Source of the DNA: Nibricoccus sp.
GTDB taxonomy: Bacteria > Verrucomicrobiota > Verrucomicrobiia > Opitutales > Opitutaceae
Length of the DNA stretch: 64,000 nt
Assembly: GCA_047602425.1 (NCBI GenBank)
Contig: JASGHG010000001.1
Location: 4,736,001-4,800,000 of the forward strand
Direction: 5' to 3'
Shown: positions 4,991 through 61,836 of the stretch, piece after piece
How the letters are laid out: every line of letters begins with the position of its first letter
Numbering within the stretch: the first letter of the stretch is position 1
Notes under the pieces: generated by a model
Database searches by the model: none
What the model was told of the DNA's origin: nothing
The model's input: only the letters and a program-made list of their open reading frames with translations
Position numbers and translations under genes: made by a program

Positions 4991-4993
4991 TCC

Positions 4994-8875: not shown

Positions 8876-8917
8876 CAACTCATGGAAGAAGGGCCATGGC
8901 CCTTCTTCCATGAGTTG
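8876..8917. promoter_or_regulatory. Perfect 42-bp palindrome covering the transposase start codon
   Basis: CAACTCATGGAAGAAGGGCCATGGCCCTTCTTCCATGAGTTG is its own reverse complement. ATG 8910 lies in the right arm. Confidence 0.75.
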
Positions 8918-19983: not shown

Positions 19984-19992
19984 CGGCGAACC

Positions 19993-20331: not shown

Positions 20332-20341
20332 AGTTTTCCAG

Positions 20342-21418: not shown

Positions 21419-21441
21419 GGAGGTGCGGGGTATTTGGATTA

Positions 21442-22644: not shown

Positions 22645-22679
22645 GTTTTGGGGAGGTAGAAAGCGGGTTGACGAGAGGT

Positions 22680-33828: not shown

Positions 33829-33834
33829 GGAAAA

Positions 33835-35119: not shown

Positions 35120-35139
35120 GCTCTGGTGGTTGCAATGGT

Positions 35140-43758: not shown

Positions 43759-43916
43759 TTTCATATGAAATAAACTAAAAAGCGTTATGTTTCATGAAAT
43801 GTTTAAGTCAAGTTCATTTAGATTTCTGGCGATGCGATGAAAATCCGCGCAACAGGTCGCTTCAACTCCGCCTTGACAAGGGGCTGTCATCATGGAAATA
43901 AGACTATTTCATGAAT
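43759..43916. promoter_or_regulatory. Cluster of TTTCATGAAA-like palindromes (candidate operators) in divergent promoter region
   Basis: TTTCATATGAAA 43759-43770, TTTCATGAAA 43790-43799, TTTCATGAAT 43907-43916. TTGACA at 43873-43878. AT-rich context. Confidence 0.6.
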
Positions 43917-43983: not shown

Positions 43984-45102
43984 ATGAATTCTGCGCAGTC
44001 CGCCCCAAAGACGATGCCCAAAAAGAATAAAGTGACCATCACCGATGTCGCGAAAGCGGCCGGGGTCGCGGTCGGTACGGTTTCACGGGTGTTGAACAAT
44101 CACACTGATGTAAACGCGACGATTCGTGCGAAAGTATGGGAGGTGGCGCGACGGCTGAACTACTCGCGTATCCGCCAACGCAGTACACGCAAGGACGACA
44201 GCTCCGGTGAGCAGAAATCCGGGACGATCGCGGCGATTTTCTTCGGCATGGAAGACACGCTGGTGCAGCTCCCGGTCGTTAGCGCGGCGTTGCAAGGCAT
44301 CGAAGGCGCCCTCTCCTCGCAAGGCCGCAGCCTGATGCTCGCAAATATTCCGAAAGCCGATCGCGTGCCGCCGTTTCTCCTCGAAAACGATGTCACCGGA
44401 TTGATTCTCAAAGGACCAAACCAAGGCGAACTTCCTCCTCTTGAGCAGAGCGATTTATTGCAGCATATCTATCGGTTCCCCCACGTGTGGCTGATGGGCC
44501 GCTTGGGCAACGCCAAAGGCGATCACGCCAACTTCGATACCGAAACTGCGGGCAAGCTGGCCGCGGAACATTTTTTCCGCAACGGTCACACGCGTGTCGC
44601 GTTTCTGAATCCCAAGCCTGGCCAAACCCAATTCGAAAAATTGCGCAACGGATTCTACGCGGCGACCTCCCGCTTCGGCCAGACCATGACGTTTTTGGAG
44701 GCATCGCCTCGCGAAAGTTTTGAATGGCCGCTGCCGGCGATCACGAGTGCAGATACGGTCAGCCTGTTGGTGGATCGCTGGGCGGCGATGGACGCGGCGT
44801 CCCGCCCCACGGGCATTTTTGTGCCAGCCGACCGGACAGCCGTTCAGCTTTATACCGTTCTCCAAGGTCGCGGGCTGCAAATTGGCCGCGATGTCAGTGT
44901 CATTTCGTGCAATAACGAGCGCCCGCACCTGATGAATCTCCATCCATCGGTGACGACGATCGAAGTTCACGCGGAAGCCGTGGGCCGGCGCGCCGTCGAT
45001 CAATTGCTTTGGCGTATCCGCCATCCGGAGGACAGCAACTCCACCCAAGTACTCGTCGAGCCTACTTTGGTCGAGGGCGATTCAGTCGCCGATCTCACGT
45101 AA
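43984..45102 (+). CDS. LacI-family transcriptional regulator
   Basis: HTH 'TITDVAKAAGVAVGTVSRVLN', sugar-binding domain 'IGRDVSVIS...PSVTTI...PTLVEGDS'. Start may be 44014. Confidence 0.93.
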   Translation: MNSAQSAPKTMPKKNKVTITDVAKAAGVAVGTVSRVLNNHTDVNATIRAKVWEVARRLNYSRIRQRSTRKDDSSGEQKSGTIAAIFFGMEDTLVQLPVVSAALQGIEGALSSQGRSLMLANIPKADRVPPFLLENDVTGLILKGPNQGELPPLEQSDLLQHIYRFPHVWLMGRLGNAKGDHANFDTETAGKLAAEHFFRNGHTRVAFLNPKPGQTQFEKLRNGFYAATSRFGQTMTFLEASPRESFEWPLPAITSADTVSLLVDRWAAMDAASRPTGIFVPADRTAVQLYTVLQGRGLQIGRDVSVISCNNERPHLMNLHPSVTTIEVHAEAVGRRAVDQLLWRIRHPEDSNSTQVLVEPTLVEGDSVADLT

Positions 45103-45148: not shown

Positions 45149-45260
45149 TTTCATGAAACAGGCTGCGCTAACATGCGATTTTTAGCGTTCTTGCGCGGTT
45201 TTACCGTGCCCCTCTTTCTTTCATTATGAAATAATATTATTGACCACTTGTTTCATGAAC
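45149..45260. promoter_or_regulatory. TTTCATGAAA-like palindromes upstream of the catabolic operon
   Basis: TTTCATGAAA 45149-45158 and TTTCATGAAC 45251-45260. The latter lies just downstream of a TTGACC (-35-like) at 45240-45245. Confidence 0.6.
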
Positions 45261-45314: not shown

Positions 45315-46481
45315 ATGCCCGCCGAATCGATGCGACCCATCACCTTGCTTCAGCCGCCGCGAATCGCGTTTGGCGCCGGTTGCGCGACGGGGTGTATAGA
45401 CGAGATTGCTGCACGGAGCCTGCGTAAGATTCTGTTGCTCACCACACCGCCGGTCGCGCCTCACGCCAAACCATTGGTGGAAGGACTCGCCGGGAAAAAC
45501 ATTCTCGTCACGACGCTGATCGATGTGCCGCCGGAACCCGGCGTGAAGGATTTCGAACGCATTCTCCTTGAAGCGCGCAAATTTTCCCCGGACGGAGTCA
45601 TCGGTTTTGGCGGTGGCAGCGTGTTGGATATCGCCAAGCTTGTCGCCGCGCTTCACGACTGCGCCGAACCGGTGCAGAACTTTTTTGGCATCGGCCTGCT
45701 GCCGCGTCGCAATACCTACCTGGCCTGCCTCCCGACGACGGCCGGAACCGGCAGTGAGGTTTCGCCAAATGCCATCCTCCTTGACGAAGCCGAGCAATTG
45801 AAGAAAGGCGTGATCAGCCCGTGGCTCGTGCCGGATTCTGCGTTTGTCGACCCGTTGTTCACGCTGTCTGTGCCACCTGCCGTGACCGCCGCGACCGGTA
45901 TCGATGCAATGGTGCATTGCATCGAAGCGTACGCCAACCGTTTCGCCCACCCAATTGTCGATGCCTACGCGCTGGAGGGCATTCGGCTCATCTCAGCTAA
46001 CCTTTTAACTGCGGTAAAAGACGGCCTCAACGTTTCGGCCCGCTCCGGCGTTGCCCTCGGGAGCCTCTATGGTGGCCTGTGCCTGGGGCCGGTCAACACC
46101 GCGGCTGTTCACGCCCTCGCCTATCCGCTGGGCAGCGAATTTCATATCGCTCACGGGCTCTCGAACGCCCTGCTGCTCGCTCCCGTCTTGCGTTTCAATT
46201 TACCGGCGGCGCCCGAACGTTATGTGGCGATCGCAGTCGCGCTCGGCGTGAAAAAGCAAAAAACCGATCTCGCGACCGCCGAGGCCGGCATTGCTCACAT
46301 CGAGAAACTCTGCGCCGACTGCGGCGTGCCGCGCGGCATTGCGGCTCTCAACATTCCCGAGTCTGCCCTTCCTCGCATGGCCGCTGCCGCTATGAAGGTC
46401 ACCCGTCTCCTCAAAAACAATCCGCGCGAACTCGTCCTCGCCGATGCCGAGGCCATCTACCGTCAGGCCTATCCAGCATGA
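45315..46481 (+). CDS. Iron-containing alcohol dehydrogenase
   Basis: 'GFGGGSVLDIAK', 'PTTAGTGSE', 'GIDAMVHCIEAY', 'HALAY...HIAHG' metal ligands. ATG 45315 or 45330. Confidence 0.92.
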   Translation: MPAESMRPITLLQPPRIAFGAGCATGCIDEIAARSLRKILLLTTPPVAPHAKPLVEGLAGKNILVTTLIDVPPEPGVKDFERILLEARKFSPDGVIGFGGGSVLDIAKLVAALHDCAEPVQNFFGIGLLPRRNTYLACLPTTAGTGSEVSPNAILLDEAEQLKKGVISPWLVPDSAFVDPLFTLSVPPAVTAATGIDAMVHCIEAYANRFAHPIVDAYALEGIRLISANLLTAVKDGLNVSARSGVALGSLYGGLCLGPVNTAAVHALAYPLGSEFHIAHGLSNALLLAPVLRFNLPAAPERYVAIAVALGVKKQKTDLATAEAGIAHIEKLCADCGVPRGIAALNIPESALPRMAAAAMKVTRLLKNNPRELVLADAEAIYRQAYPA

Positions 46482-47383
46482 TTCAACAAGGTAAACATAA
46501 CGGCGTCATCGTCCCGCTCGTCACGCCCTTCACCGCCCAAGGCGAAATCGACGAAGCTGCGACCGCCCGCATCATCAATCATTGCGCCGAAGCCGGCGTG
46601 CATGTCTTCGTGCTCGGCACAACCGGCGAAGCCGCATCAATCGCCACCGCCAAACGCGTTCGTTTGATCAATGCCTCCGTCACCGCCGCCGCGGGCCGAA
46701 TCAAAGTCTACGCCGGCATCGGAGACAACTGCCCGGAAAATTCCATTGCCGCGGCCAACGAATACCTGCGCCTCGGCGCCGACGCCGTCGTTGCGCATCT
46801 GCCCGCTTATTACGCGCTCAAGCCCGCTGAAATGCAGGCGTTCTTCGAACTGCTTTCCTCGCAGATCCGCGGAAGCCTGATGCTTTATAATATCCCCTCG
46901 ACGACGCACATGTCGCTCCCCCTCGACATCGCCGAGCATCTCAGCCATTTGCCCAACGTCATTGGATTTAAGGATTCTGAAAATGCACCTGGCCGCCCCG
47001 AGGAAACGGCTCGCCGACTCAGCGACCGGGCCAACTTTTCCATTTTCATGGGAGCCGCCGTGCTCTCGGCCAAGGCGCTGAAACTTGGTTTCGACGGCCT
47101 TGTTCCCAGCTCGGGCAATCTCGTGCCGCAACTCTGGCGCGAACTCTACGACCAGGCTCGCGCTGGCAATTGGGAAAAAGCCGAAGCTCTCCAATCGCGG
47201 CTCAATACCATCGCGCAAGTCTTTCAGCGTAACCGCAGCCTCGGCGAATCCCTCGCCGCGTTGAAAGCGATGATGGACACCCACGGTCTTTGCGGCCCAA
47301 CGGTGCTTCCGCCGTTGCGTACGCTCGACGCCGCCGCCCGCCAGAGCGTCACAGCCGAGTTGGCCGCCCTCAATCTCGCCTGA
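46478..47383 (+). CDS. DHDPS/NAL-family class I aldolase (candidate Dha aldolase)
   Basis: 'VPLVTPF', 'GTTGE', 'LYNIP', 'FKDS'. ATGA overlap with the ADH stop. Confidence 0.88.
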   Translation: MIQQGKHNGVIVPLVTPFTAQGEIDEAATARIINHCAEAGVHVFVLGTTGEAASIATAKRVRLINASVTAAAGRIKVYAGIGDNCPENSIAAANEYLRLGADAVVAHLPAYYALKPAEMQAFFELLSSQIRGSLMLYNIPSTTHMSLPLDIAEHLSHLPNVIGFKDSENAPGRPEETARRLSDRANFSIFMGAAVLSAKALKLGFDGLVPSSGNLVPQLWRELYDQARAGNWEKAEALQSRLNTIAQVFQRNRSLGESLAALKAMMDTHGLCGPTVLPPLRTLDAAARQSVTAELAALNLA

Positions 47384-47392
47384 TTTTTCGCC

Positions 47393-48547
47393 ATGGCCGG
47401 ACCTTCCATCGCGGTTCTGGCGGACGATCTTACCGGCGCTGCCGAGATAGCCGCCATCGGCAAACGGCATGGACTTCCGTCCCGCATTTTTGCCAGCACC
47501 GCCCAAAGTCGTCCCTTTTCGGCCGGCCTGTCCGTGCACGATACCGACTCCCGCCTGTTAACCGCTGCCAAGGCGGCGGAACGCGTGACAGCGACAGCGG
47601 CCTCGCTTGGCGATGCGGATACGGCGTTTATTTTTAAGAAAACCGACTCCGTTCTCCGCGGCAACGTCGTGGCCGAAATTGTCGCGTTCGCCCGCGCCAC
47701 CGGCAAACGACGCATTTTACTCGTGCCCGCCAATCCATCGCTTGGTCGAACTATTTCGAAGGGACAATATTTCGTTCAAGAAGTGCCGATTGCTGAAACG
47801 AATTTTGCCCGCGATCCGCATCATCCTGCGAAATCCTCCAGCATCGTCGAATTGCTCGGCCCTTCGCCGGATTGGCCGGTGAGCGTCCTGGCTTCCGGAG
47901 CCCCGCTGCCTGAACAGGGAATCATCGTCGGTGAAACAACAACTTCGGCTGACGTCGCCCATTGGGCCGCCCACCTCGATCGCGACACGCTGGCGGCAGG
48001 TGGCGCGGACTTTTTCCAAGCGTGCCTCAAGCAGTTCGGTCTCGCACCGAAACCAACGAGCATACCTAAGTCTCCTGGACTTGTTTTGATTGTCACCGGG
48101 TCGCTTACGCCCGCCCGGGAAACGCTTCTGGCCCATGCTTCTTCTGTTGGCTGGCCGGTGCATACAATTGCTGGAGATTTCGCCGCCTTAAGGCGCACAT
48201 TCGAAATGAGCAGCATCATCCTAGTGCAGAGTCCGAAAACCGCAGTCAACGACCAGGCCTTGGGAGCGCGTCTTCGCGCAGATTTTGGCGAACTCGTTCG
48301 CAGACTGCGCTCTCAAGTTTCCCTTGGACAGGTCGTGGTCGAGGGCGGAGCCACCGCGGCGGCCATCAGCGAAGCCAATGGCTGGACAAGTTTCGACGTC
48401 GCGGGCGAATGGGCCCCCGGCGTCATTGCATTGCACCCGACGGCCGCTCCAGAAATTCTTTTTACCATCAAACCGGGCAGTTACACTTGGCCGGAAAATC
48501 TTTGGCGCCAACTCGACAGCTGCCGCGTTTCCTTCTCAAAATCTTAA
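47393..48547 (+). CDS. Four-carbon acid-sugar kinase (DUF1537; DtnK/DenK family)
   Basis: 'ADDLTGA', 'DTDSR', 'FKKTDSVLRGN', 'EGGATA', 'KPGS'. Confidence 0.88.
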   Translation: MAGPSIAVLADDLTGAAEIAAIGKRHGLPSRIFASTAQSRPFSAGLSVHDTDSRLLTAAKAAERVTATAASLGDADTAFIFKKTDSVLRGNVVAEIVAFARATGKRRILLVPANPSLGRTISKGQYFVQEVPIAETNFARDPHHPAKSSSIVELLGPSPDWPVSVLASGAPLPEQGIIVGETTTSADVAHWAAHLDRDTLAAGGADFFQACLKQFGLAPKPTSIPKSPGLVLIVTGSLTPARETLLAHASSVGWPVHTIAGDFAALRRTFEMSSIILVQSPKTAVNDQALGARLRADFGELVRRLRSQVSLGQVVVEGGATAAAISEANGWTSFDVAGEWAPGVIALHPTAAPEILFTIKPGSYTWPENLWRQLDSCRVSFSKS

Positions 48548-48553
48548 TACGTC

Positions 48554-49573
48554 ATGGCCGCCTCCTCCGACGCACTCCCCCCCATTCTCGCGATCACCCT
48601 GGGCGATCCTGCAGGAACCGGACCAGAACTTATCTCCAAAGCCGTCACCCTGCCCGAGGTCCGCGCGATCTGTCGTCCGCTCGTGGTCGGCGATGCCGCC
48701 GTGCTCGCCGCGGCGCTACGTTACACGGGCGTCCTGCTCAAAATAAACGCCATTGCCGACGTCGGTGCCGGACAATTTGCGGCGGATTCCGTCGATGTCC
48801 TCGACCTCAAAAACGTGAATCTCGATCAGCTTCAAATCGGCAAAGTTTCGGCCATGGCCGGAAAAGCCGCGTATGAAGCGGTGAAAACCGCTGCCGAACT
48901 AGCTCTCGCCGGTAAAGTGGGCGCGATCGTCACCTCGGCGCTCAATAAAGCTGCAATGAATTTGGCGGGCTACCATTTCGACGGCCACACCGGCTTGCTC
49001 GCCGAGGTCTGCAAGTCTCCTGGAGCCACGATGATGCTCGCCGCCGACAAACTTCGCGTCAGTCACGTCTCGACGCATGTGCCTTTGCGCGTCGCGGTCG
49101 ACCGCGTTCGTCCTGAGCGCATCATGAAGGTTCTGCGCCTGACCAATGACGCGATTAAAAATCTTGGCGTCGCCAAACCCCGGATTGCCGTCGCCGGTCT
49201 CAATCCGCATGCGGGCGAAAACGGCCTTTTTGGCGATGAGGAACAAAAATATATCACTCCCGCCATCGAGGAAGCGCGTCGCGAAGGCATTGACGCTTCC
49301 GGGCCGTACGCCGGCGACACGATTTTCTTCCGCTGCGCCCAAGGCGAGTTCGATGCCGGCGTCGCCATGTACCACGACCAAGGCCACGTCGCCGCGAAAA
49401 TGCTCGGCATTTGGCGCGGCGTGAACGTTACGCTCGGCCTGCCGATCATTCGAACGTCCGTCGAGCACGGCACGGATTTCGCCAACGCGGGCACCGGTCG
49501 TGGCGATCCACGCAGTCTCATCGAAGCGATCAAACTCGCCGCCACCATGGCCCGAAACCGTATCAAGAACTAA
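48554..49573 (+). CDS. pdxA2: PdxA-family dehydrogenase, probable D-threonate/erythronate-4-phosphate dehydrogenase (PdxA2)
   Basis: 'GDPAGTGPE', 'GHT', 'LNPHAGE', 'MYHDQG', 'GLPIIRTSVEHGT'. Adjacent to a DUF1537 kinase. Confidence 0.85.
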   Translation: MAASSDALPPILAITLGDPAGTGPELISKAVTLPEVRAICRPLVVGDAAVLAAALRYTGVLLKINAIADVGAGQFAADSVDVLDLKNVNLDQLQIGKVSAMAGKAAYEAVKTAAELALAGKVGAIVTSALNKAAMNLAGYHFDGHTGLLAEVCKSPGATMMLAADKLRVSHVSTHVPLRVAVDRVRPERIMKVLRLTNDAIKNLGVAKPRIAVAGLNPHAGENGLFGDEEQKYITPAIEEARREGIDASGPYAGDTIFFRCAQGEFDAGVAMYHDQGHVAAKMLGIWRGVNVTLGLPIIRTSVEHGTDFANAGTGRGDPRSLIEAIKLAATMARNRIKN

Positions 49574-49615
49574 TTTCCACTTCGCTCTCCAGCCTCAGCT
49601 TTCTCCCCGCGCCCC

Positions 49616-51151
49616 ATGTCCCTCCACACACTCGACTACGTCGTACTTGCGGCCTATGCGCTGCTCATTGTCGGTCTGAGCATTGCCGTCTCCCGTCGTA
49701 ACGAAAGCACCTCCGACTACTTCATCGCCGGGCGTGGACTCCCCGGTTGGGTGGTCGCGTTCACGCTGATGGGCACCATCATCGGCACCGGAACTTTCGT
49801 CGGGCATCCCGGCAACTCTTATCAAAAAGGACTGATCCTGCTCGTGCCGCATTTGATGCTGCCGTTGGTTCTATTGTTTGTTTCGAAAGTCATCGTGCCC
49901 TTTTACCGGCGCGTCGTGCGCATGAGTGCTTACGAGTACATTGGCTTGCGTTTCGGGTTGGGCGGCCGGCTTTATACTTCGTTCGGGTTTTTGGCTGACC
50001 GTATTTTCGACATCGGCGTTACACTCCTCACCACCGCTTACGCGGTCAACGTGCTGACGGGCTGGGAAATTCGCAATGTCATCTTCGGCGTTACGTTGTT
50101 TACCGCCGTTTACACGACAATCGGCGGCATCAAAGCCGTTGTTTGGACTGATGTTGCGCAGGGTACGATTTTGATTCTTGGCGGATCGTTCGTTTTGCTG
50201 CGTTTGCTTTTCGCTCCCGAAGCGGGAGCGCCTTTCGCTGTCGTCGGTGAAGCGTGGCGCGCAGGCCGCATGACTCTCGGCAATTGGGACTTTTCCTGGA
50301 AAAGCCTGTTCGAAACGCAGACGACGGCGTGGCTTTTCATCCTCACCTACATGATCCAGTGGGCGCGCCGCTACGTCACCGATCAGCACCTCGTGCAACG
50401 TTACCTTATTGCCCGCACCGACGCCGAGGCGAGCCGCGCGGTTTTTGCCGGGGCGTTGATCTGCGTGCCGGTGTTTTTTGTCTTCATGTTCATCGGTTCA
50501 TGCTTCTATGGGTTTTTCTCCATAACCAAGGCGCAGGTGCCAGAAATCGGTGACCACATCATGCCCTTCTTCATGATGAATTATCTCCCCGCCGGACTGC
50601 TTGGCCTGGTGTTTGCCGCCATCCTCGCCGCCGCGATGTCGACTGTCAGTTCCGACCTGAATAGTGTGGCGACTGTCGCCACGAGTGATTTCTTCGCGAA
50701 TATGTTTCCCAAGAGCAACGATCGCACGCGCTTGGTCTGCGGACGTTGCATGGTGCTCGTGGGCGGAGCGCTGGCAGCTGGTTCGGCTATTTTGCTGATT
50801 CCCGACAAAGGTTCCGCGCCCGTGATGGAACGTGCTGTCACCATCGCCGCCATTCTCTCGGGCGGCACCCTGGGGCTTTTCTGCCTCGGTTTTCTCACCC
50901 GCCGCGCAACTCGGCAAGGTTGCTATGTTGGCATGGCCTGCTGCGTTTTGTTCACCGCTTGGGCAATTCTGACTGAGCCAAGAGCGCGCATCCTGAACCT
51001 TCCGTTAAACTTCGAGATGAATCCAATCCTCATCGGACTTTTCGGACACCTCGTTCTTTTCGTTACCGGCTACATTGCCAGCCGTCTTCTCGGAGGTTAC
51101 CGTCCAGAAAACGTTGAGCAACTCACCATCCGCCATCGCCCGGCGGCCTAA
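49616..51151 (+). CDS. Sodium:solute symporter (SSS family)
   Basis: 'DYFIAGR', 'SAYEY', 'GGIKAVVWTDVAQ', 'DQHLVQRY', 'AAAMSTVSSDLNS'. Confidence 0.92.
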   Translation: MSLHTLDYVVLAAYALLIVGLSIAVSRRNESTSDYFIAGRGLPGWVVAFTLMGTIIGTGTFVGHPGNSYQKGLILLVPHLMLPLVLLFVSKVIVPFYRRVVRMSAYEYIGLRFGLGGRLYTSFGFLADRIFDIGVTLLTTAYAVNVLTGWEIRNVIFGVTLFTAVYTTIGGIKAVVWTDVAQGTILILGGSFVLLRLLFAPEAGAPFAVVGEAWRAGRMTLGNWDFSWKSLFETQTTAWLFILTYMIQWARRYVTDQHLVQRYLIARTDAEASRAVFAGALICVPVFFVFMFIGSCFYGFFSITKAQVPEIGDHIMPFFMMNYLPAGLLGLVFAAILAAAMSTVSSDLNSVATVATSDFFANMFPKSNDRTRLVCGRCMVLVGGALAAGSAILLIPDKGSAPVMERAVTIAAILSGGTLGLFCLGFLTRRATRQGCYVGMACCVLFTAWAILTEPRARILNLPLNFEMNPILIGLFGHLVLFVTGYIASRLLGGYRPENVEQLTIRHRPAA

Positions 51152-51165
51152 ATACTCCGTCCGTC

Positions 51166-52986
51166 ATGACCTTGCGCCAAAATCATTTTCTTCTATTTGC
51201 CGGTTTGGCCATCGCAGCCACAGCCCTCGCGGATACTTCGAAGCCGCCGCCACCGCTCGTATGTCGCGATTTGCCAGCCATCACCACCGCAGCCGACGGC
51301 GGTCTGCGCCCCGTGGTTGGCGTGCAAAATATCCAAGTCGTGCGCTCCAACCGTACCAGTTCTCCCCATGCCGACGGCCTGCTGCACAGCTATCTGCATC
51401 AACCGATGCTGGCGTATTGGAAAGGTAAATACTACCTCGAATACCTGAGTGGCCCGCGCAGTGAACACGAATTTCCCTGCGTAACCTCTCTCACCACATC
51501 GACCGACGGCTATCGGTGGGAAAAACCACGCGTCGTTTTTCCCGCGATCAAATTGCCCGACGGTCGCGAAACGGTCGCCCATCAACGCATGGGTTTCTAT
51601 GTCGCGCCCGAAGGACGCCTGCTCGTGCTCTCCTTTTACGGCATCCCGCCTGAACCCAACGACGGCACCGGAATCGGTCGCGCCGTGCGTGAGATTCTCG
51701 CCGATGGCTCCTTCGGGCCGATCTATTTCATACGCCTAAATGCCAAACAACATTTTCCTGAATTCAAGCCGCCTTATCCGCTTTACACCGCGTCGACCGA
51801 CGCCGGCTTTGTCGCGGCGTGCAATGCGCTGCTCGCCAACAAACTCATGACCGCCCAATGGTGGGAGGAAGACCAGCTCGACGAAAGCGGATTTTATACC
51901 ATCAAAGGCAAAGCGCTTTCGTACATTCATCGTCCTGACGGTTCTGTCCTCGGCGTCTGGAAAAATGCCCTCGTCGCCACCACGCACGATGCTGGCCAAA
52001 CCTGGACCGAGAAGCAATTTGCCACCAATCTTCCCAATAACGCGTCCAAATACTGGCTCCAAAAAACGGGCGATGACCGTTTCGCGCTTTTCCTAAACCC
52101 GACCAATCGCCAACGCCTGCCGCTCGCCGTCACGACCAGTGCGGATTGCGCAAACTTTACAGGTCTGCTGGCCATTCACGGCGAACTTCCCGATCAGCGT
52201 TTTCCCGGCAAATACAAAAACCTCGGCCCTCAATACGTTCGCGGCATCGTCGAGGGCAACGGCATTCCGCCCGATTCCGCCAAAGCCACTTGGGTGACCT
52301 ATAGCGTCAACAAGGAGGATATTTGGATCAGCCGTGTACCAACGCCCATCGTCGCCGCCGTTGATCAGCCGGTGCATGAGGATTTTGAAAAGACCGCCGC
52401 TGGCGCCCTTCCCGTCGACTGGAACATCTATAGCCCGCTTTGGGCTCCCGTTTCCGTGGTCGAAACAAATTCTCCCGCCAAACATGCCTTGGAACTCCGC
52501 GACGAAGACCCGTGCGACTACGCGCGCGCCGTTTGTGTTTTTCCCGAAACCCATGGCTTGAAGGCTTCCTTCAAAGTGCTTCCACGTCAGACAAACGCCC
52601 GCTTCGAAATCGAACTGGCCTCCGCTAACGGCGCGCGCCCGTTTTTGATCGCTCTCGGCGAAGATGGACACCTTTGGGCCAATCACGAAGGGGTATGGAA
52701 TGACAACGGCGCGTATACTGCCGGCCGATGGATCTCCTTTGAACTAGCAGCCAACGCCAAGACCGCCTCTGATCGCATCGCTCTTAAAATCGATGGCAAG
52801 CCTGCCAAACCAGGCGAAATCGGCCCGGCCGAGGCTGCCGCTACTGTTGAACGCCTGTCGTTCCGTACCGGCGCCTTCCGCTATCGCGGTGACGGCAAAG
52901 GCTACGATCTCCCTAACGCCGACATCAAAGTCCCAGCCGCATCCTTCCTGATCGACGACGTTCACCTCGAACCCGTCCGCGAATAG
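51166..52986 (+). CDS. GH143-like Dha (3-deoxy-D-lyxo-heptulosaric acid) hydrolase, stand-alone, secreted
   Basis: 'PVVGVQNIQVVRSNR', 'HQPMLAYWKGKYYLEYL', 'HQRMGFY', 'GIGRAVREI', 'QWWEE', 'GPQYVRGI', 'YSVNKEDIW', matching the recalled N-terminal domain of BT1020. Confidence 0.8.
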   Translation: MTLRQNHFLLFAGLAIAATALADTSKPPPPLVCRDLPAITTAADGGLRPVVGVQNIQVVRSNRTSSPHADGLLHSYLHQPMLAYWKGKYYLEYLSGPRSEHEFPCVTSLTTSTDGYRWEKPRVVFPAIKLPDGRETVAHQRMGFYVAPEGRLLVLSFYGIPPEPNDGTGIGRAVREILADGSFGPIYFIRLNAKQHFPEFKPPYPLYTASTDAGFVAACNALLANKLMTAQWWEEDQLDESGFYTIKGKALSYIHRPDGSVLGVWKNALVATTHDAGQTWTEKQFATNLPNNASKYWLQKTGDDRFALFLNPTNRQRLPLAVTTSADCANFTGLLAIHGELPDQRFPGKYKNLGPQYVRGIVEGNGIPPDSAKATWVTYSVNKEDIWISRVPTPIVAAVDQPVHEDFEKTAAGALPVDWNIYSPLWAPVSVVETNSPAKHALELRDEDPCDYARAVCVFPETHGLKASFKVLPRQTNARFEIELASANGARPFLIALGEDGHLWANHEGVWNDNGAYTAGRWISFELAANAKTASDRIALKIDGKPAKPGEIGPAEAAATVERLSFRTGAFRYRGDGKGYDLPNADIKVPAASFLIDDVHLEPVRE

Positions 52987-52992
52987 TTTCCC

Positions 52993-55900
52993 GTGCGCCG
53001 CCTGACTCCAGCCCGCTGTTTTCTCCTGGCCCTGTTGGTGGTCTTCGCCCCGTTTCTCCGTGCTGCCGAACTTCGCACCGATCAACTCCTCACCGACAAC
53101 TGGCGCACCCTCCTTGCCCCCGCTGATGCCGTTGGCTTCGAAAAACCTGCGTTCGACGATCGCGATTGGAGCCCTGTCAGCGTGCCGCACAACCATGACA
53201 CCTACCATGGCTACCACCAACTCCGCCATGGTAACCTCCATGGCACGGCATGGTATCGCACCAGCTTCACCATCGCATCGTCTGAGCAGGGGCGCCGCAT
53301 TTTTCTTTTCTTCGAGGGCGTTGGTTCCTATGCGACGGTTTGGGTCAACGGCCAACAGGTTGGGAAACACGCCGGGGGCTTGACCACGTTCACGCTCGAC
53401 GTCACTGACGCGATCGCTTTCGGCCGCGAAAATATCCTCGCCGTCCGCGCCGATCATCCCGCTGGCATTCGCGATCTGCCCTGGCTCTGCGGCGGCTGCG
53501 AACGCACCTATGGCACCTCGGAAGGCCCGCAACCTCTCGGCATCATCCGCCCCGTGCATGTTGTCAGCACCGCTCCCGTGCGCATCGAACCGTTCGGTGT
53601 TCATGCTTGGATCGATGGGCCCCAGTCCGACTCCGTCGCCACGCGCATCGACACCGAGGCGAAAAACTACAATGCCCGCACTGCGCAGATCACACTCCGC
53701 ACGACACTACTTGACCGCGAGGGCAACTCGGTTGTCGAAACGTCCTCTGCGCACACGGCCAATCCAGGCGAAACAGCCAAAATCGCTCAGACGCTCCCCG
53801 CGGTTTCGAACCTTCATCTTTGGTCGCCCGCGTCGCCGTACCTTTATACGATTCGGTCCGAAATCCTCATCAACGGACAGCCCGTCGATCGCTTTGAGAC
53901 GCCCTTCGGTTTCCGTTGGATCGCCTGGCCCAAGTCCGCCAATTCCAATCGCCGACGCCTGCTGGTGAACGGCGAACCGTTTTTTATCAACGGTACCGCC
54001 GACTACGAACATCTCCTCGGCAATAATTTTGCGTTCACCGACACGCAAATCACTGCGCGCGTTCGGCAGATCGAGGCCGCTGGCTTCAACGCCTTTCGCG
54101 ACGCACATCACCCGCACAATCTCCGTTTTCAACAGTACTGGGATCACGACGGTCTGCTTTGGTGGACCCAGTTTGGCGACTCTACTTGGTTCGACAATGA
54201 CGCTTTCCGTACCAACTGCAAAACGCTGCTCACCGAATGGGTGAAGGAGCGCCGCAATAGTCCGTCGCTCATCCTCTGGGGACTGCAAAACGAAAGCCTC
54301 CTGCCCACTGCCTTCGCCGAGGAATGCTCCGCTCTTATTCGCAAGCTCGATCCCACCTCCTCGACCCAGCGGCTCATCACCACGTGCAATGGCGGCACCG
54401 GCACCGATTGGGACGTTCCGCAAAACTGGTCGGGCACGTACAGCGGCGATCCCGAAAAATACGACGAAGATCTGCGCACACAGTCCTTAATTGGTGAATA
54501 CGGTGCTTGGCGTAGCCTCGGCCTGCACACCGAGGGGGGCTTCGTCGAAAAATCTCCGCTCAGCGAGGACCGTTTTTGCGCTTTGATGGAAATGAAAATC
54601 GCACTCGCCGAGAAAGCCCGCGCCGACGCCTGCGGCCATTTCCAGTGGCCGTTCGTTAGCCATGCGAATCCCGGCCGCAACTTCGGGGAACTCGGCGAAC
54701 AGCTCTACGACGGCATCCGCCCACTCGATCGCGTAGGCCCGGTGAACAACAAGGGCCTTTTCACCATTTGGGGCGAGCCCACCGATGCATTCTATCTCTA
54801 CCGGGCCAACTTCGCTCCGAAGGAAACTCAGCCGATGGTCTATATCGTTTCCCATACCTGGCCGGACCGCTGGACGTCTCCCGGCAAAAAATCCGGTCTC
54901 ATCGTTTATTCCAACTGCGACGAAGTGGAGCTGTTTAATGGTTCTCGTTCACTTGGCCGCCGCACACGCGCGGGCATCGGCACGCATTTCCGCTGGGACG
55001 ACGTCGAAATCGACTGCAATCTCCTCCGTGCCGAGGCTCGCGTGGGCAGTGCAGTCGTTGCCAGCGACGCGGTCTGCCTAAAACATCTGCCACCCCCAAT
55101 CGATGAGAAAAAAGAGTCGAAAAAATACAGCTTGGTCCAGCCCGCCCTCGGATACCAATATCTTTACCGCATCAATTGCGGTGGTCCGGCTTTTCGCGAT
55201 CCTTACGAAAATCTCTGGCTGGCTGACCGAGATTTCAACCCGGGCGATTCCTGGGGCGCAGTCTCTTGGGCCACCGAATTCGCGAATCTGCCCGCCGCTT
55301 TTGCCAGCCAAGGCAAAACTTACAGCGTGGTGACAGGTACACGAGCCAGCACGCTCTTCCAAACTTTCCGCTACGGCCGCGAAAATCTTTCCTACCGCTT
55401 CGCCGTTCCCGATGGCGAATATCTCGTCGAACTGTTTTTCGTTGAGCCGTGGTACGGCATCGGAGACGGCCTGAACTGCACAGGCTGGCGGGTCTTCGAT
55501 GTCGCGATCAATGGCCAGGTCGTGCTGCGGGATTTTGATCTCTGGCGCGAGGTCGGCCATGGCCGCGCCGTCAAGAAAACTGCCACCGCCCGCAGCGATA
55601 AGGGCGTGCTGACCATTTCCTTTCCGCGGGTCTCGTCCGGACAGGCCGTGATTTCCGCCATCGCCATCTCCACCAAAATCCCGCAGCCCGAGCCGAACCC
55701 TCCGCCACCAGCAATTATGTTGCTCAAAAGTCCGCCGCAATCCTCCGTCGAGACCCATCTCGATACCGGCGACCGCCACTATAGCGATGTACCTGGAGGC
55801 TTCACTGAATTGCCTTACGAACTCTTCGATGCCGATTGGCTTCGCACGCCGGCTTCCGCGACGACAGCATTGGAATTCAAGCTGAGTTACGATGCCGACG

Positions 55901-56805
55901 TTTGGGTTGCCTTGGACGAACGTATTTTACCCCTGCCTGGCTGGCTCGCCGGTTGGGAGCGCACTTCGCTCTCCCTGCGCACCAACGCTGCCGTTGGCTC
56001 AAAATTCGTTCTTTACCGAAAAGCCTTCGCCAAAAGCAGCATTGTTTCGCTCGGTGAGATTTCATCTGGTGTGATGCGCTACACGGTTTTCATCACGCGT
56101 GTGCTACCGCCGGCGCCTCCACAATTTGTCACATTATCGGACAACGCCCCTAACTGGCAGGCCGTAGGAAACGTCAAACTGGGCGTCCGTAGCGAGCTGC
56201 TCGGGTTCAGCATTGTCCGTTTTCCAGACAATCTGACTGGTGGCGATTTTATCCTGCCTTCTGCAGCCGCCCCTTCACCTCCACTTCGCCTGAGCGCCGA
56301 CGATCACGTAGAAATCACAGGCGCCTTCAAACCCGGCACCAAAGTAGGCGGTGGATGGATCGATACCAAACGAACCGCCACCGCCAACGACGGCGCAACC
56401 TTTGCCTTGTGGCGTCAACGTCTCGCCGCCGGAGCTTCCGTCGAATTTGCCTCAACCAACGATACACCACTTTTCGCCTTCGTTCGCGCCGTTCGTCCAT
56501 CCGTTACGTATAAAGCGCAAAAAGTCGCTGATAACCGGACTGAATGGACCATTCAGGTCGGCGTCGGCGATCGTTACGGCTTGAACTTCAAGTACCGTAA
56601 TCTTTCGGCCGCCCGCATCACCGCCACGCTCGAAATCATGCAAGCCAACGGTGACCTCCTGCGGACCGATCCGATCGAATTCCCGCCCACTGCCGAGTGG
56701 GCTATCGTCCGCACCCGTACCGGTGCCAGCATCAACGCCGGCACCTACAAATTCCGCCTGCTCGCTCCGCCCCAACTGCAACTCGAAAATCTGGAGGTAG
56801 AATAA
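52993..56805 (+). CDS. GH2 glycosidase (beta-D-glucuronidase type) with malectin-like domain
   Basis: 'HGNLHGTAWYR', 'NAFRDAHHP', 'WGLQNE', 'IGEYG', malectin-like 'YRINCGG...LFQTFRYG...RVFDVAING'. Resembles the recalled GH2 half of BT0996. Confidence 0.82.
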   Translation: MRRLTPARCFLLALLVVFAPFLRAAELRTDQLLTDNWRTLLAPADAVGFEKPAFDDRDWSPVSVPHNHDTYHGYHQLRHGNLHGTAWYRTSFTIASSEQGRRIFLFFEGVGSYATVWVNGQQVGKHAGGLTTFTLDVTDAIAFGRENILAVRADHPAGIRDLPWLCGGCERTYGTSEGPQPLGIIRPVHVVSTAPVRIEPFGVHAWIDGPQSDSVATRIDTEAKNYNARTAQITLRTTLLDREGNSVVETSSAHTANPGETAKIAQTLPAVSNLHLWSPASPYLYTIRSEILINGQPVDRFETPFGFRWIAWPKSANSNRRRLLVNGEPFFINGTADYEHLLGNNFAFTDTQITARVRQIEAAGFNAFRDAHHPHNLRFQQYWDHDGLLWWTQFGDSTWFDNDAFRTNCKTLLTEWVKERRNSPSLILWGLQNESLLPTAFAEECSALIRKLDPTSSTQRLITTCNGGTGTDWDVPQNWSGTYSGDPEKYDEDLRTQSLIGEYGAWRSLGLHTEGGFVEKSPLSEDRFCALMEMKIALAEKARADACGHFQWPFVSHANPGRNFGELGEQLYDGIRPLDRVGPVNNKGLFTIWGEPTDAFYLYRANFAPKETQPMVYIVSHTWPDRWTSPGKKSGLIVYSNCDEVELFNGSRSLGRRTRAGIGTHFRWDDVEIDCNLLRAEARVGSAVVASDAVCLKHLPPPIDEKKESKKYSLVQPALGYQYLYRINCGGPAFRDPYENLWLADRDFNPGDSWGAVSWATEFANLPAAFASQGKTYSVVTGTRASTLFQTFRYGRENLSYRFAVPDGEYLVELFFVEPWYGIGDGLNCTGWRVFDVAINGQVVLRDFDLWREVGHGRAVKKTATARSDKGVLTISFPRVSSGQAVISAIAISTKIPQPEPNPPPPAIMLLKSPPQSSVETHLDTGDRHYSDVPGGFTELPYELFDADWLRTPASATTALEFKLSYDADVWVALDERILPLPGWLAGWERTSLSLRTNAAVGSKFVLYRKAFAKSSIVSLGEISSGVMRYTVFITRVLPPAPPQFVTLSDNAPNWQAVGNVKLGVRSELLGFSIVRFPDNLTGGDFILPSAAAPSPPLRLSADDHVEITGAFKPGTKVGGGWIDTKRTATANDGATFALWRQRLAAGASVEFASTNDTPLFAFVRAVRPSVTYKAQKVADNRTEWTIQVGVGDRYGLNFKYRNLSAARITATLEIMQANGDLLRTDPIEFPPTAEWAIVRTRTGASINAGTYKFRLLAPPQLQLENLEVE

Positions 56806-56806
56806 C

Positions 56807-59233
56807 ATGCTCCGCCGTCTCGCGATTCTCGTTTTTTCTCTCGCAACTCTTTGCAGCCTCCACGCCCAAAGCCTGCGCGACCGCCTGCTCTGGGACGACC
56901 GCTGGCGCTTCGCCCTCGGCGACATTCCCGAAGCAAAAGAACCGGCCTTCAACGATTCTGCCTGGCGCCAGCTCCATTTGCCACACGATTGGAGCATCGA
57001 GGGCCAAACCGATCCCAATGCTCCAACCGCCGGTGGCGGTGGATTTTTCCCGACGGGCATCGGCTGGTATCGGCGCAGTTTCATTGCCCCTACCATATGG
57101 ATCGGCAAGCGCGTCCAGCTCGAATTCGAAGGCGTTGCCGGTCAGGTCGAAATCTGGCTGAACGGCAAACCGGTCGCCGCCCACCCTAACTCTTTCACCT
57201 CCTTCTTCGCGGATCTCACACCGCACCTCAAACACGGTCGCGATAACTTTCTCGCCCTTCGCGTCGACAATTCCAAGCAGCCCAACACCCGTTACTACAC
57301 CGGTTCCGGTCTCTACCGGCATGTGTGGCTCAACGTCACCGGCGTCATCCATCAGGCTCCGTGGAGCGTTTTCGTTTCTACGACAGAACTCACCGCCGAA
57401 CGAGCGACAATCGCCATACGGGCCAATATCAAAAACTTCAGCGATGCCCCCGCCTCCGTTGCCCTCCAAACCCAGGTTTTCGGCCCCGACGACCGCCCTG
57501 TTGAAATCGTTTCGGAAACCGTTCCGCCCGCTCTCCAACTAATTGGCGGTGGCAACCAGTTTGTAACGTATAACGTTACAATCAAAAATCCGAAACCCTG
57601 GCACCCCGACACACCAGTGCTCTATCACGCCATCACTCGCGTTCTTGTCAGCGGACGGGTGGTCGATGAAGTTTCCACGCCTTTCGGAGTGCGCACACTC
57701 AAAGTTTCCGCCGCTCGCGGATTCGAACTCAACGGCCAGCCTGTCAAACTCCGCGGCGGCAACGTCCACTCCGACCAGGGTCCGCTCGGTGCCGCCGCCT
57801 TCGACCGGGCCGAGGAACGGAAGGTTCAGCTTCTGAAATCCGCCGGCTACAACGCCGCGCGCACCGCGCATAATCCGGTCGCCCCTGCATTTCTGGAGGC
57901 TTGCGACCGCCTTGGCCTGCTCGTGATCGAAGAAGCCTTCGACTGCTGGGAAAAGGGCAAGGTTGCCGAAGACTACAGCAAATTTTTCAAGGATTGGTGG
58001 CAACGAGACATTGATGCCATGGTCATGCGCGACCGTAATCATCCGTCTGTGGTGATGTGGAGCACGGGCAACGAACTTTACGAAAGAGGCAACGCCAACG
58101 GTCTTCGCATTGCCACCGAACTCGCCGCCCGTATTCGTTCTCTCGATACCACCCGCCCTCTCACCGCTGGCATCAACGGCCTCGGCAAAGGTGGTGACTG
58201 GACGAAGCTCGACCCGCTTTTCGCCACGCTCGATGCCGCCGGCTACAACTACGAGCTCACGCGCCACGCGGACGACCACACCCGGCTTCCGGCCCGCGTC
58301 ATCTATTCATCCGAATCATATCAAACCGATACGTTTCAAAACTGGTCTACCGTCTTGAGCCAGCCGTACATCGTCGGCGATTTCGTCTGGAGTGCGATTG
58401 ACTATCTGGGAGAGGCTGGCATCGGCCGCATCTATCCGCCCAGCCAGACCGCTGCCGCCCACTGGATCGGCAACCACTATCCGTGGCACGGCGGCGCTTG
58501 TGGCGATTTGGATATTACAGGAATTCGCCGACCTGAATCTTACTACCGTGAACTTGTCTGGGGCGTCGGCGTGACGAAACTCTACGCCGCCGTCGTTCCG
58601 CCAACGTCCGCCGACCGTCCATGGAACACCACGCTCTGGTCCGTTCCACCCGCCGAGGCGCACTGGAACTGGACTGGCTATGAAGGAAAACCTCTCCAGG
58701 TCGTGGTTTTTTCTCGCTACGATGCAGTTCGGCTTCTGCTGAACGGAAAAAACGTCGGTGAGAAAAACACCAGTGCCGCGACGCAATACAAGGCCACTTT
58801 CTCAGTCCCGTACGCGGAGGGTAAACTCGTCGCCGTTGCTTTTGCCCAAGGCAAAGAGGCGGCACGCTTCACGCTTCAAACCGCCGAAAACGACGTGCAA
58901 CTCCGCCTCACTGCCGACCGCAAAACTATGCGCGCCGACTCTGAAGACCTCATTTTCATCAACGTCGAGGTCGTCGACAAAAATGGCACCGTCCATTCTG
59001 GCGTAAACCAATCCGTCCACTACACCGTCAGCGGTCCTGCCACACTCGCGGCCATCGGCAGCGCCGATCTTGCGTCCACCGAACCGTACAATGCCAACCC
59101 TCGCCGCCTCCACGATGGCCGGAGCCTCATTGTTCTCCGTAGCACCGCCGAACCGGGAAAAATCACCTTTACTGCCACCGCACCCGGAATGAAACCCGCA
59201 TCAGTCACACTCGAATCAAAGTCCAGCTTGTGA
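56807..59233 (+). CDS. GH2 glycosidase, secreted
   Basis: 'LPHDWSIE', 'RYYTGSGLYRHV', 'RTAHNP', 'WSTGNE', 'VWSAIDYLGE'. Confidence 0.9.
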   Translation: MLRRLAILVFSLATLCSLHAQSLRDRLLWDDRWRFALGDIPEAKEPAFNDSAWRQLHLPHDWSIEGQTDPNAPTAGGGGFFPTGIGWYRRSFIAPTIWIGKRVQLEFEGVAGQVEIWLNGKPVAAHPNSFTSFFADLTPHLKHGRDNFLALRVDNSKQPNTRYYTGSGLYRHVWLNVTGVIHQAPWSVFVSTTELTAERATIAIRANIKNFSDAPASVALQTQVFGPDDRPVEIVSETVPPALQLIGGGNQFVTYNVTIKNPKPWHPDTPVLYHAITRVLVSGRVVDEVSTPFGVRTLKVSAARGFELNGQPVKLRGGNVHSDQGPLGAAAFDRAEERKVQLLKSAGYNAARTAHNPVAPAFLEACDRLGLLVIEEAFDCWEKGKVAEDYSKFFKDWWQRDIDAMVMRDRNHPSVVMWSTGNELYERGNANGLRIATELAARIRSLDTTRPLTAGINGLGKGGDWTKLDPLFATLDAAGYNYELTRHADDHTRLPARVIYSSESYQTDTFQNWSTVLSQPYIVGDFVWSAIDYLGEAGIGRIYPPSQTAAAHWIGNHYPWHGGACGDLDITGIRRPESYYRELVWGVGVTKLYAAVVPPTSADRPWNTTLWSVPPAEAHWNWTGYEGKPLQVVVFSRYDAVRLLLNGKNVGEKNTSAATQYKATFSVPYAEGKLVAVAFAQGKEAARFTLQTAENDVQLRLTADRKTMRADSEDLIFINVEVVDKNGTVHSGVNQSVHYTVSGPATLAAIGSADLASTEPYNANPRRLHDGRSLIVLRSTAEPGKITFTATAPGMKPASVTLESKSSL

Positions 59234-60741
59234 AACTTCGTCTATTTCCATCACTCCTCTTCGCTCTTCTCACCACGCTTGCCCGTGCCGAAGTCGCCTG
59301 CCCGGTCATTTTTTCCGACCACATGGTTCTCCAACGCGAGAGCCCTGTCGCCATCTGGGGAACGGCCACGCCTGACGAGCAAGTCACCGTGGAGTTTGCC
59401 GGCCAGTCAAAAACCGCCAAGACCTCAACCGATGGAAAGTGGCGCATCGATCTCGACGCCATGCCTGCAAGCAAAGAGCCGCGCCTGCTCACCGTTCGCG
59501 GCAACAACACGCTGCGTTTCGTCGACGTGCTTGTGGGTGAGGTCTGGTTTTGCTCCGGCCAGTCAAACATGGAAAAGCAGCTCGGTCCGCGCAAGGGCCA
59601 GAAGCCGACCGACAACTACGAGGAAGCCACGCGCCAGGCCAATCACCCGCTGCTCCGTTTGTATCAAGTGCCGCACTACAGCAAACCGACCGACAAAATT
59701 CTCAGCCTTCGCTGGGTCGCCTGCACACCCGAAACCGTGACCGCCGCCGAATTTTCGGCCGCTGGCTACTATTTTGGCGCCGAGCTTCTGCGCAAACTCG
59801 ACGTTCCCGTCGGCCTGATCCACTCCAGCTACGGCGGTACGATGATCGAGGCATGGACGCCACGCGAAGCATTCGAGCGCACACCCGAACTCGCTCCACT
59901 CCTTGCCAAACCCTATCAAGCCTGGGTCAAAGGCGTCCAGGCCACCGAGCTTTTCAACAGCATGGTCGCTCCCTATGTTCCCTACACGCTGCGCGGTTTC
60001 CTCTGGTACCAAGGCGAGTCAAACCTCATGGCCGGCGACACTGACATCTACACGCTCAAGCTTCGCACGTTGATCGAAAGCTGGCGCGCGCTTTGGACCA
60101 AACCCGACGCGCCGTTCTATTACGTTTTGCTCGCGCCCTTCCGTTACTCGCCACGTGATAAAGATCCCGCACAGCTGACCGCCGAGGCCCTCCCGCTTTT
60201 TTGGGAAGCGCAAATCGCCACCGCCAAAATCGTTCCGCACACTGGCTTCGTCGTCACCACTGACATTGGCAATCCGAAGGACATTCATCCGACCAACAAG
60301 CGCGGCGTCGGCCTTCGACTCGCCACGCTCGCCCTTGCCGAAACCTACGGATCGCCCAACACCGCAGCCCAAAGCCCACGCTTCGCCTCGAAGGAAATTT
60401 CCGCCAACAAAATTATTCTGCGCTTCTCTCCTGCTTCCCCAGGCCTGAAATCCCGTGACGGTAAACCGCTCGACGGTTTCCTCATCGCCGGCAGCGATAA
60501 AAATTTCGTCCCCGCCAACGCAGTGATCGAAGGCGACACCGTCGTCGTCACTGCACCCGCCATCGCCAGCCCTGTCGCCGTCCGCTTCGCTTGGTCAGAA
60601 GCCGCCAATCCGAATCTCGTCAATTCCGTCGGCCTACCGGTCGCACCGTTCCGCACCGACGACTGGCCGGTCATCTACCGGCGCCCAGCGCCGTCGCCGG
60701 CCACCGAATCTTCTTCTACGCCCAAACCCGCTTCCCCCTGA
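59230..60741 (+). CDS. Sialate O-acetylesterase-family (SASA) carbohydrate esterase
   Basis: 'GEVWFCSGQSNM', 'WYQGESN', 'DIHP.NK' catalytic motifs. Signal peptide. Confidence 0.9.
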   Translation: MKLRLFPSLLFALLTTLARAEVACPVIFSDHMVLQRESPVAIWGTATPDEQVTVEFAGQSKTAKTSTDGKWRIDLDAMPASKEPRLLTVRGNNTLRFVDVLVGEVWFCSGQSNMEKQLGPRKGQKPTDNYEEATRQANHPLLRLYQVPHYSKPTDKILSLRWVACTPETVTAAEFSAAGYYFGAELLRKLDVPVGLIHSSYGGTMIEAWTPREAFERTPELAPLLAKPYQAWVKGVQATELFNSMVAPYVPYTLRGFLWYQGESNLMAGDTDIYTLKLRTLIESWRALWTKPDAPFYYVLLAPFRYSPRDKDPAQLTAEALPLFWEAQIATAKIVPHTGFVVTTDIGNPKDIHPTNKRGVGLRLATLALAETYGSPNTAAQSPRFASKEISANKIILRFSPASPGLKSRDGKPLDGFLIAGSDKNFVPANAVIEGDTVVVTAPAIASPVAVRFAWSEAANPNLVNSVGLPVAPFRTDDWPVIYRRPAPSPATESSSTPKPASP

Positions 60742-60747
60742 ACTCCC

Positions 60748-61827
60748 ATGTGGAAATCCAACTGGTCCGAAACCCAACAACGCTTCAAGAAATGGTGGAA
60801 CCGTGACGGTCTGCTCGTCGGCATGTGGGGCGCGCCGGAGACCGCCGCCTGCATTCACGAACAAGTGGCCGCCCCCGTCGTTCCCGCAACCATCGACGAG
60901 CGCTATTGCGATCCCGCCTATCGCGCTGCGCAGAACCACTACCGCCTCTCGCGTTCGATTTTCCCGCTCGACGTTCTGCAGACCGCCAGCCCCGACCTCG
61001 GGCCCGGCACGCTGGCGATGTACTGCGGTTCCGAACCTGGTTTCGCCGAGGGCACCGTTTGGTTTAATCCCTGCATCGAACACGTTGAAAATCCTGAGGA
61101 GTTGCCTCCCATTCGCTTCAATCCGGAAAGCCATTGGTGGAAAACCACGGAAGCCATCCTGCGCCAATGTCAGGAAAAAGCGCGCGGCAAATACTTCGTT
61201 GGCTGTCCGGATTTGATCGAGAACATGGACATCCTTTCATCGCTGCGTGGTGCACAGACGCTGATGATGGACATGATCGAGCGTCCCGAGTGGATTGAGA
61301 AAAAAATCTGGGAGATCAATGCCGCCTACTTCGAGGCCTACCAGCGTATCTACGACATTATCAAACTTCCGGACGGCAGTTCCGTCTTCGATGCATTCTA
61401 CGTTTGGGGACCAGGCAAAACCGCCAAACTTCAGTGCGACGCCTCCGCCATGTTCTCGCCCGACATGTACAAGCGATTCGTGGTGCCCGCGCTCACCGCT
61501 CAATGCGAGTGGCTCGACAATACCATCTATCACCTCGACGGCACGCAGGCCGTCTGCCACCTCGATACCTTGCTCTCTATCGAACCGCTCGACGCGATCG
61601 AATGGACGCCTCAGGCCGGCATCGAACCAGGCGGCAACAAGCGTTGGTACGACATGTACAAACGCATTCTCGCCGCCGGAAAATCCGTGCAAGTCGTCAA
61701 TGTCGAACTCAGCGACATCAAGCCGCTTCTCGACACGATCGGCACCAAGGGCGTCTACATTCTTATCCAATTCAAAGACCAAAAAGAAGCGGACCTCGCG
61801 TTGAAAATCCTGGAGCCCTACTACTAA
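60748..61827 (+). CDS. UroD/MtaA-superfamily TIM-barrel protein
   Basis: 'DLGPG', 'DILSSLRG', 'LMMDMIERPE', 'LQCDASAMFSPDMYKRFVVP', 'YHLDG'. Cytoplasmic. Confidence 0.7.
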   Translation: MWKSNWSETQQRFKKWWNRDGLLVGMWGAPETAACIHEQVAAPVVPATIDERYCDPAYRAAQNHYRLSRSIFPLDVLQTASPDLGPGTLAMYCGSEPGFAEGTVWFNPCIEHVENPEELPPIRFNPESHWWKTTEAILRQCQEKARGKYFVGCPDLIENMDILSSLRGAQTLMMDMIERPEWIEKKIWEINAAYFEAYQRIYDIIKLPDGSSVFDAFYVWGPGKTAKLQCDASAMFSPDMYKRFVVPALTAQCEWLDNTIYHLDGTQAVCHLDTLLSIEPLDAIEWTPQAGIEPGGNKRWYDMYKRILAAGKSVQVVNVELSDIKPLLDTIGTKGVYILIQFKDQKEADLALKILEPYY

Positions 61828-61836
61828 TTGCGCGGC

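Follow-up and report, generated by a model that had tools for sequence, protein, structure and literature searches.

A stretch of 64,000 nucleotides of Nibricoccus sp. (Opitutaceae, Verrucomicrobiota; contig JASGHG010000001.1, positions 4,736,001 to 4,800,000), hereafter the window, contains at its positions 45315-52986 six open reading frames (ORFs) of the (+) strand, free of internal stops and separated by intergenic gaps of −4, 9, 6, 42 and 14 bp. [quoted passage not shown] The Pfam domains are, respectively, Fe-ADH/ADH_Fe_C, DHDPS, SBD_N with NBD_C, PdxA, SSF, and Beta-prop_BT_1020 with Sialidase-like_CBM. The preliminary description of this DNA claimed a tightly packed six-gene operon of these families, and coordinates, strand, intact frames and domains all agree with it. 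The surroundings in the window represent an RG-II locus with a GH138 homologue (BPa0997), GH95, GH78, GH106, an apiosidase-like gene and a BT0996-like GH2. In a single-protein scan of genome contigs the closest named loci (3 loci) belonged to Opitutaceae.

Based on gene context and sequence one can assume, with a probability of about 0.72, that the operon is a catabolic pathway for Dha, as was proposed initially, even though counter-examples (genomes G023, G323 and G382, and Bacteroides thetaiotaomicron) have to be weighed. The GH143 homologue would release Dha from RG-II for import by the symporter; cleavage between C3 and C4 by the aldolase would then give pyruvate and D-threuronate, Fe-ADH would reduce the aldehyde of the latter to D-threonate, and the kinase together with the PdxA2-like enzyme would turn D-threonate into dihydroxyacetone phosphate (DHAP) and CO2. 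The configuration of Dha at C4-C6 is D-lyxo, and the Fischer bookkeeping offered for this scheme is correct: D-lyxo Dha, once cleaved, reduced at the aldehyde and renumbered from the carboxylate, is D-threonate. The substrate assignments, most of all those of the aldolase and the reductase, we infer from the same material. The final part of the scheme resembles the D-threonate pathway of DtnK and PdxA2, reportedly described by Zhang in 2016 with DHAP and CO2 as products, in that a DUF1537 kinase with the motif KKxDSxLRG adjoins a PdxA2-like dehydrogenase, but the window adds GH143, symporter, aldolase and Fe-ADH, by which a C7 sugar acid would become the source of D-threonate. The step logic is that of the GarL-GarR-GarK route of E. 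coli for glucarate and galactarate, where a keto-deoxy-aldarate undergoes aldol cleavage to pyruvate and a semialdehyde, followed by reduction and phosphorylation. Unlike this route, that for Dha would be one carbon longer, would end with an oxidative decarboxylation and would use another protein family at every step (DHDPS-type class I aldolase, Fe-ADH, DUF1537).

The assignment of 51166-52986 to GH143, made already in the preliminary description, is borne out by full-length homology to the N-terminal propeller and the CBM-like domain of BT1020 (5MQR, residues 39-607, also given as 41-599, E 1.3e-116, the sole PDB match). PF24067 was matched with 277 bits (cut-off 27, E 1e-82) and PF22585 was matched as well. 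Arg141, Arg175, Arg317, Tyr357, Arg359, Glu384 and other residues are 100% conserved in 26 homologues. According to one report, the N-terminal domain of BT1020 is a validated GH143 that releases Dha (PMC13501991). The two proteins are homologues lying in RG-II neighbourhoods with GH138, GH78, GH106, GH95 and GH2 homologues, but that of the window stands alone, without the GH142 domain, and is coupled to a catabolic cassette. As read from the sequence, it has a signal-peptide-like N-terminus, which the four catabolic enzymes lack. The symporter, the predicted Dha importer, has its best PDB match in 5NV9, presumably the sialic acid transporter SiaT (E 1e-49, versus 1e-33 for vSGLT). Sialic acid catabolism by sialidase, SiaT and NanA likewise combines a propeller ulosonidase, a symporter of the same family and a pyruvate-yielding class I lyase; unlike it, the window has no Nan kinase, epimerase or deacetylase, and the acidic motif after strand 7 of the lyase is replaced.

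The predicted Dha aldolase falls in a clade of its own (21 rows, support 100/99 in a 41-row tree). It is very improbable that this DHDPS-family protein is a decarboxylating dehydratase of the KdgD/KDA type and that Dha is not split 3+4. Dha is an aldarate, as is the substrate of KdgD, and KdgD models do match weakly (81-93 bits against cut-offs of 278-374), but the aldolase-typical motif G47-T-T-G-E51, Tyr137 and the Schiff-base residue Lys165 are invariant in 19 sequences, and dehydration would presumably yield no four-carbon acid for the kinase and PdxA. The protein also lies outside NanA (86-103 bits against cut-offs of 281-382). Largely refuted, and hardly credible any longer, is the notion of housekeeping dapA and pdxA genes or of a chance cluster, which has on its side the automatic name "dihydrodipicolinate synthase" and a score of the PdxA2-like enzyme above the cut-off of the generic model TIGR00557 pdxA (351/290). 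The aldolase, however, remains below the cut-off of TIGR00674 dapA (152 bits against 206) and has threonine in place of what we take to be the arginine of DapA; a DapA (at 4561456, outside the aldolase clade) and another PdxA are encoded in the same genome, and the patchy distribution of the cassette within genera tracks that of GH143. The cluster is not a chance arrangement, because it recurs, with rearrangements, across many genera.

Aldolases of the sister group (14 loci, 29-39% identity) have no ADH, kinase or PdxA gene within the fetched spans, and a fucose-isomerase-like or FGGY-kinase gene, recognized by Pfam or annotation, is present in seven of these loci. [quoted passage not shown] At positions 192-194 the sisters keep an acidic motif G-P-E/D, where the cassette clade has G-A/V/I-A, and human HOGA, which yields an aldehyde with a carboxylate group, shows a neutral GSAG at the same place. 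From this likeness we infer that the substrate of the clade would have an acidic tail. Two other marks were dropped: Arg173, at first sight specific for the clade (21/21 versus 0/14 sisters), occurs at the same offset in the DapA of this genome and in 3EB2, and P0192, an apparent fusion considered as a Rosetta stone, proved to be a HOGA-like duplication. An Atlas search with the aldolase returned generic DHDPS clusters only, and aldolases found in plasmid searches were all distant (35% identity or less).

These data bear on another alternative, namely that the same ulosonate logic serves a different or broader substrate: Kdo as well as Dha, or other 3-deoxy-heptulosonates/heptulosarates leading to D-erythronate and a DenK-type kinase. 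Kdo and Dha share the configuration at C4-C6, DtnK and DenK are indistinguishable from the kinase sequence here, and other BNR proteins replace GH143 beside the cassettes L072, L125, L167, L177 and L178. Nevertheless we consider this alternative unlikely, as cleavage of Kdo gives D-arabinose, whose further use requires an isomerase and a ribulokinase, of the kind seen beside the sister aldolases, rather than ADH, kinase and PdxA; moreover, the adjacent hydrolase of the window is GH143, and a second aldolase accompanied by a BNR gene sits at 32737-36084. This segment, on the (−) strand, contains a BNR sialidase-like gene, a major facilitator superfamily (MFS) transporter and the second DHDPS-like enzyme, which forms a long branch in the tree outside the sister group; the unusual tail at the end of the MFS ORF may be due to a frameshift. 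The segment is a candidate Kdo module. Elsewhere the source genome encodes an FGGY kinase and has a fucose-isomerase-like gene.

Fe-ADH, the predicted D-threuronate (tartrate semialdehyde) reductase, keeps the GGGS motif and the metal ligands Asp197, His201, His266 and His280 and scores under every NCBIfam cut-off. The aspartate that we take to be a mark of NADH preference is missing from it and from its clade, and a preference for NADH appears doubtful. The kinase, for which D-threonate is the predicted substrate, has its best PDB matches in 4XFR/4XFM, shares the motif KKxDSxLRG with them and with DtnK of E. coli, and is 28% identical to DtnK of E. coli CFT073. In the kinase tree it lies outside the OtnK group and outside the RuBisCO-like-linked group, presumably OiaK, and the motif K(Y/V)CSTFDS of OtnK and the apionate route is not present. 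Thus an apionate-type kinase, named beforehand as a possible objection to the Dha route, is not what the operon encodes; both the DtnK/DenK motif and the occurrence of a separate apionate-type kinase in the genome speak for this. The DUF1537 family includes D-threonate and D-erythronate kinases, as stated in PMC10971088. The PdxA2-like enzyme, a predicted decarboxylating 4-phospho-D-threonate dehydrogenase, matched 2HI1 (E 3e-87) and 6E85 (E 6e-79) best, versus E 6e-57 for PdxA1. It resembles PdxA2 in being nearer to it than to PdxA1, in having a DUF1537 neighbour and in coexisting with a second PdxA at 1435433 of the genome. Participation of PdxA2 in organic-acid catabolism is mentioned in PMC9997740.

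The possibility that two modules share one operon should be considered here: GH143, symporter and aldolase would act on Dha, and the kinase with PdxA (and ADH) would handle free tetronates, products of apiose or aceric acid, or 4-hydroxythreonine salvaged for vitamin B6. DUF1537 kinases do phosphorylate 4-hydroxythreonine, according to PMC7954711 and PMC10971088. Related kinases occur with PdxA in the absence of the aldolase (L083, L084, L087) or alone (L085, L086, L088), and PdxA of G382-type loci is of a different lineage (~39-50% versus 63-85% identity). Against these points, ADH, aldolase, kinase and PdxA stay together in 19/19 full-length clade loci though the lineages of PdxA and symporter differ, and the genome has its second PdxA and, about 100 kb from the operon, an isomerase/transketolase cluster as well as an apionate-type kinase accompanied by a RuBisCO-like gene. 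We therefore find the division into two modules improbable. The RuBisCO-like gene, the DUF1537 kinase and an Asp/Glu-racemase-family gene occupy G000:C1:4899413-4902957 of the source genome (L089); this kinase is broken by one frameshift and is 89-92% identical to the copy in genome G004. L089 and the isomerase/transketolase cluster presumably represent apiose (apionate) routes.

Linkage of the cassette with GH143 and RG-II genes, anticipated in the preliminary description, was tight both in genomes and in metagenome loci. Genome-level counts were made within Verrucomicrobiota, with single contigs and plasmid records representing other phyla. An aldolase was assigned to the clade at ≥42% identity, with five candidates scored per genome, and GH143 was called by PF24067 at E 1e-20. 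In the 19 full-length clade loci, counted without the window and without L024, which is cut by a contig end, Fe-ADH, kinase and PdxA were present in every case, the symporter in 18 and GH143 in the same run in 17, once frameshifted. Among 401 genomes of the phylum 16 had the clade aldolase, 16 had PF24067 and 14 had both, so GH143 occurs in 14/16 clade genomes versus 2/385 of the rest; in a 15th clade genome, G145, a broken GH143 follows the cassette. Within genera the aldolase and GH143 were gained or lost together (g38, 3/4; g39, 2/3; g43, 1/5). From 526 loci of the metagenome scan 80 were retained; 19 of these extend ≥4.5 kb upstream and ≥5.5 kb downstream, and among them we registered the symporter in 19, ADH and PdxA in 17 each, the kinase in 16 and GH143 in 15. 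In L145 and L149, where gene order differs, a more distant GH143 lies directly upstream of aldolase-ADH. Proteins named Anaerohalosphaeraceae are encoded in L137 and L162, the cassette of the latter adjoining a GH138 homologue, and the cassette therefore spans at least two phyla. The constant core consists of ADH, aldolase, kinase, PdxA and GH143, since the symporter differs in position and lineage and lacI is frequently missing. L073 (G314:C29) is a second, divergent cassette within one genome; it includes a fused symporter-sulfatase ORF and an unassigned gene of 778 aa, has a GH143 paralogue ~17 kb away and may serve a modified substrate. In L019 (G013:C11) numerous frameshifts break up the cassette, which is not linked to GH143.

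Several observations weigh against the Dha pathway. The genome counts are not independent, because they come mostly from one family and from physically linked genes. The kinase reaches 127 bits against the cut-off of 450 of the D-threonate kinase model NF047819, gammaproteobacterial by name, the PdxA2-like enzyme 319 bits against 583 for NF002891, and no catabolic gene attains any substrate-specific NCBIfam cut-off. In genome G023 GH143 of 66% identity occurs, whereas a clade aldolase is absent and PdxA gave no match at E 1e-20; in G323 and G011, too, the clade aldolase is missing, and their GH143 is divergent. At L192 (G011:C22) a remnant of ADH-PdxA, symporter and lacI with an inserted gene is found without aldolase. 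Conversely, no GH143 was found in G382 (99% complete), which has the cassette. The metagenome loci L129 and L131 have GH143 and lack the kinase within their span, and B. thetaiotaomicron, taken as a control, is GH143-positive and gave no match to PF07005 (DUF1537), so the route is not universal. No ADH/kinase/PdxA cassette was detected in the fetched stretches of three full-length Bacteroidota GH143 loci from the plasmid search. Thus the cassette is not required for the use of GH143, and GH143 is not the only partner of the cassette.

Where GH143 is missing, a conserved 555-aa BNR/MORN protein precedes the symporter (L167:5584-7248, L178:2031-3686, L072:13373-14992). It accompanies the G382 cassette, its homologues lie near GH143 paralogues in L027 and L043, and it is a candidate alternative hydrolase. 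Sialidase-like genes ~41% identical to the sialidase of an E. coli CFT073 cluster were found beside clade aldolases at L125:118-999 and L145:12-419, and L145 holds GH143 as well. The available part of PMC12928451 describes orphan pdxA2 clusters in extraintestinal pathogenic E. coli (BEN2908 GR6, CFT073 C_RS03545-03585) and on pSymB of S. meliloti, and assigns no substrate to them there. Sialidase-like, DapA-like, Fe-ADH, DUF1537, PdxA2 and transporter functions occur together in these clusters, as in the window, and ADH of S. meliloti is 42% identical to our Fe-ADH; however, their aldolases lie outside the clade and their hydrolase is COG4692 rather than GH143.

Because the CFT073-type sialidase family occurs beside clade aldolases (L125, L145) and the functions of the clusters match, one may tentatively suppose that pectin Dha is the natural source of D-threonate for DtnK/PdxA2 and that the route was assembled independently at least twice: in Verrucomicrobiota and Planctomycetota from GH143 and the aldolase clade described here, and in extraintestinal E. 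coli and S. meliloti from an unrelated aldolase combined with a COG4692 sialidase. This supposition is weaker than that of the Dha pathway itself, and the odds are rather against it; if true, it would make COG4692 proteins, and likewise the 555-aa BNR/MORN protein, new families of Dha-releasing hydrolases. In the literature searched, which left most subscription journals outside, we found neither a Dha aldolase nor a Dha catabolic route, and an earlier proposal is possible; the part of a 2026 RG-II preprint available (10.64898/2026.03.13.711244) mentions Dha only structurally. The route is likely real and built from known parts. While RG-II depolymerisation has been mapped enzyme by enzyme, the operon offers a candidate fate for the released Dha, candidates for two unassigned activities, Dha aldolase and D-threuronate reductase, and a possible origin of D-threonate. 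It also provides a substrate hypothesis for the orphan clusters of extraintestinal E. coli and S. meliloti and would correct many "dapA" and "pdxA" annotations.

A gene of a LacI-family regulator (43984-45102, +; Pfam LacI and Peripla_BP_3), the predicted repressor of the cassette, precedes the operon, and its orthologues, 56-84% identical, adjoin the cassette in other loci. Two TTTCATGAA palindromes at 43790-43915, between lacI and a divergent RG-II operon, and two more at 45149-45259, upstream of the ADH gene, are predicted operators. Similar palindromes occur upstream of lacI in 5/5 orthologous regions tested, and sites of this type were found in eight of 13 other lacI-cassette spacers versus none of nine upstream slices taken from cassettes that have no lacI next to them. 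Operator-like sites were counted 12 times against 4.3 expected, an enrichment that is partly circular because the motif was derived from these very sites. The lacI gene and the flanking palindromes are part of the same unit as the operon. Two further pairs of palindromes in the source genome (G000:C1:3531760, 3532076, 3544995, 3545138), the first pair lying upstream of a TonB-like gene in an extended intergenic region, point to a possible wider regulon.

Beyond 52986 the (+)-strand run continues with gaps of 6, 1, −4, 6 and 9 bp through a block (52993-62922) of a BT0996-like GH2, a second GH2, a SASA esterase, an unassigned gene and a GFO oxidoreductase; NF049877 was matched there with 1229 bits, under its cut-off of 1800. 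Inside the RG-II locus two URO-D-family genes flank RhaT at 18850-22821, and past the window end, at G000:C1:4805414-4810284, lie genes that, judged by eye, resemble parts of a corrinoid methyltransferase. Demethylation of 2-O-methyl sugars of RG-II is a possible role of these genes. At the edge of the locus (677-10091) two tandem proteins with eCIS-core/endonuclease domains are followed by an insertion-sequence (IS) integrase.

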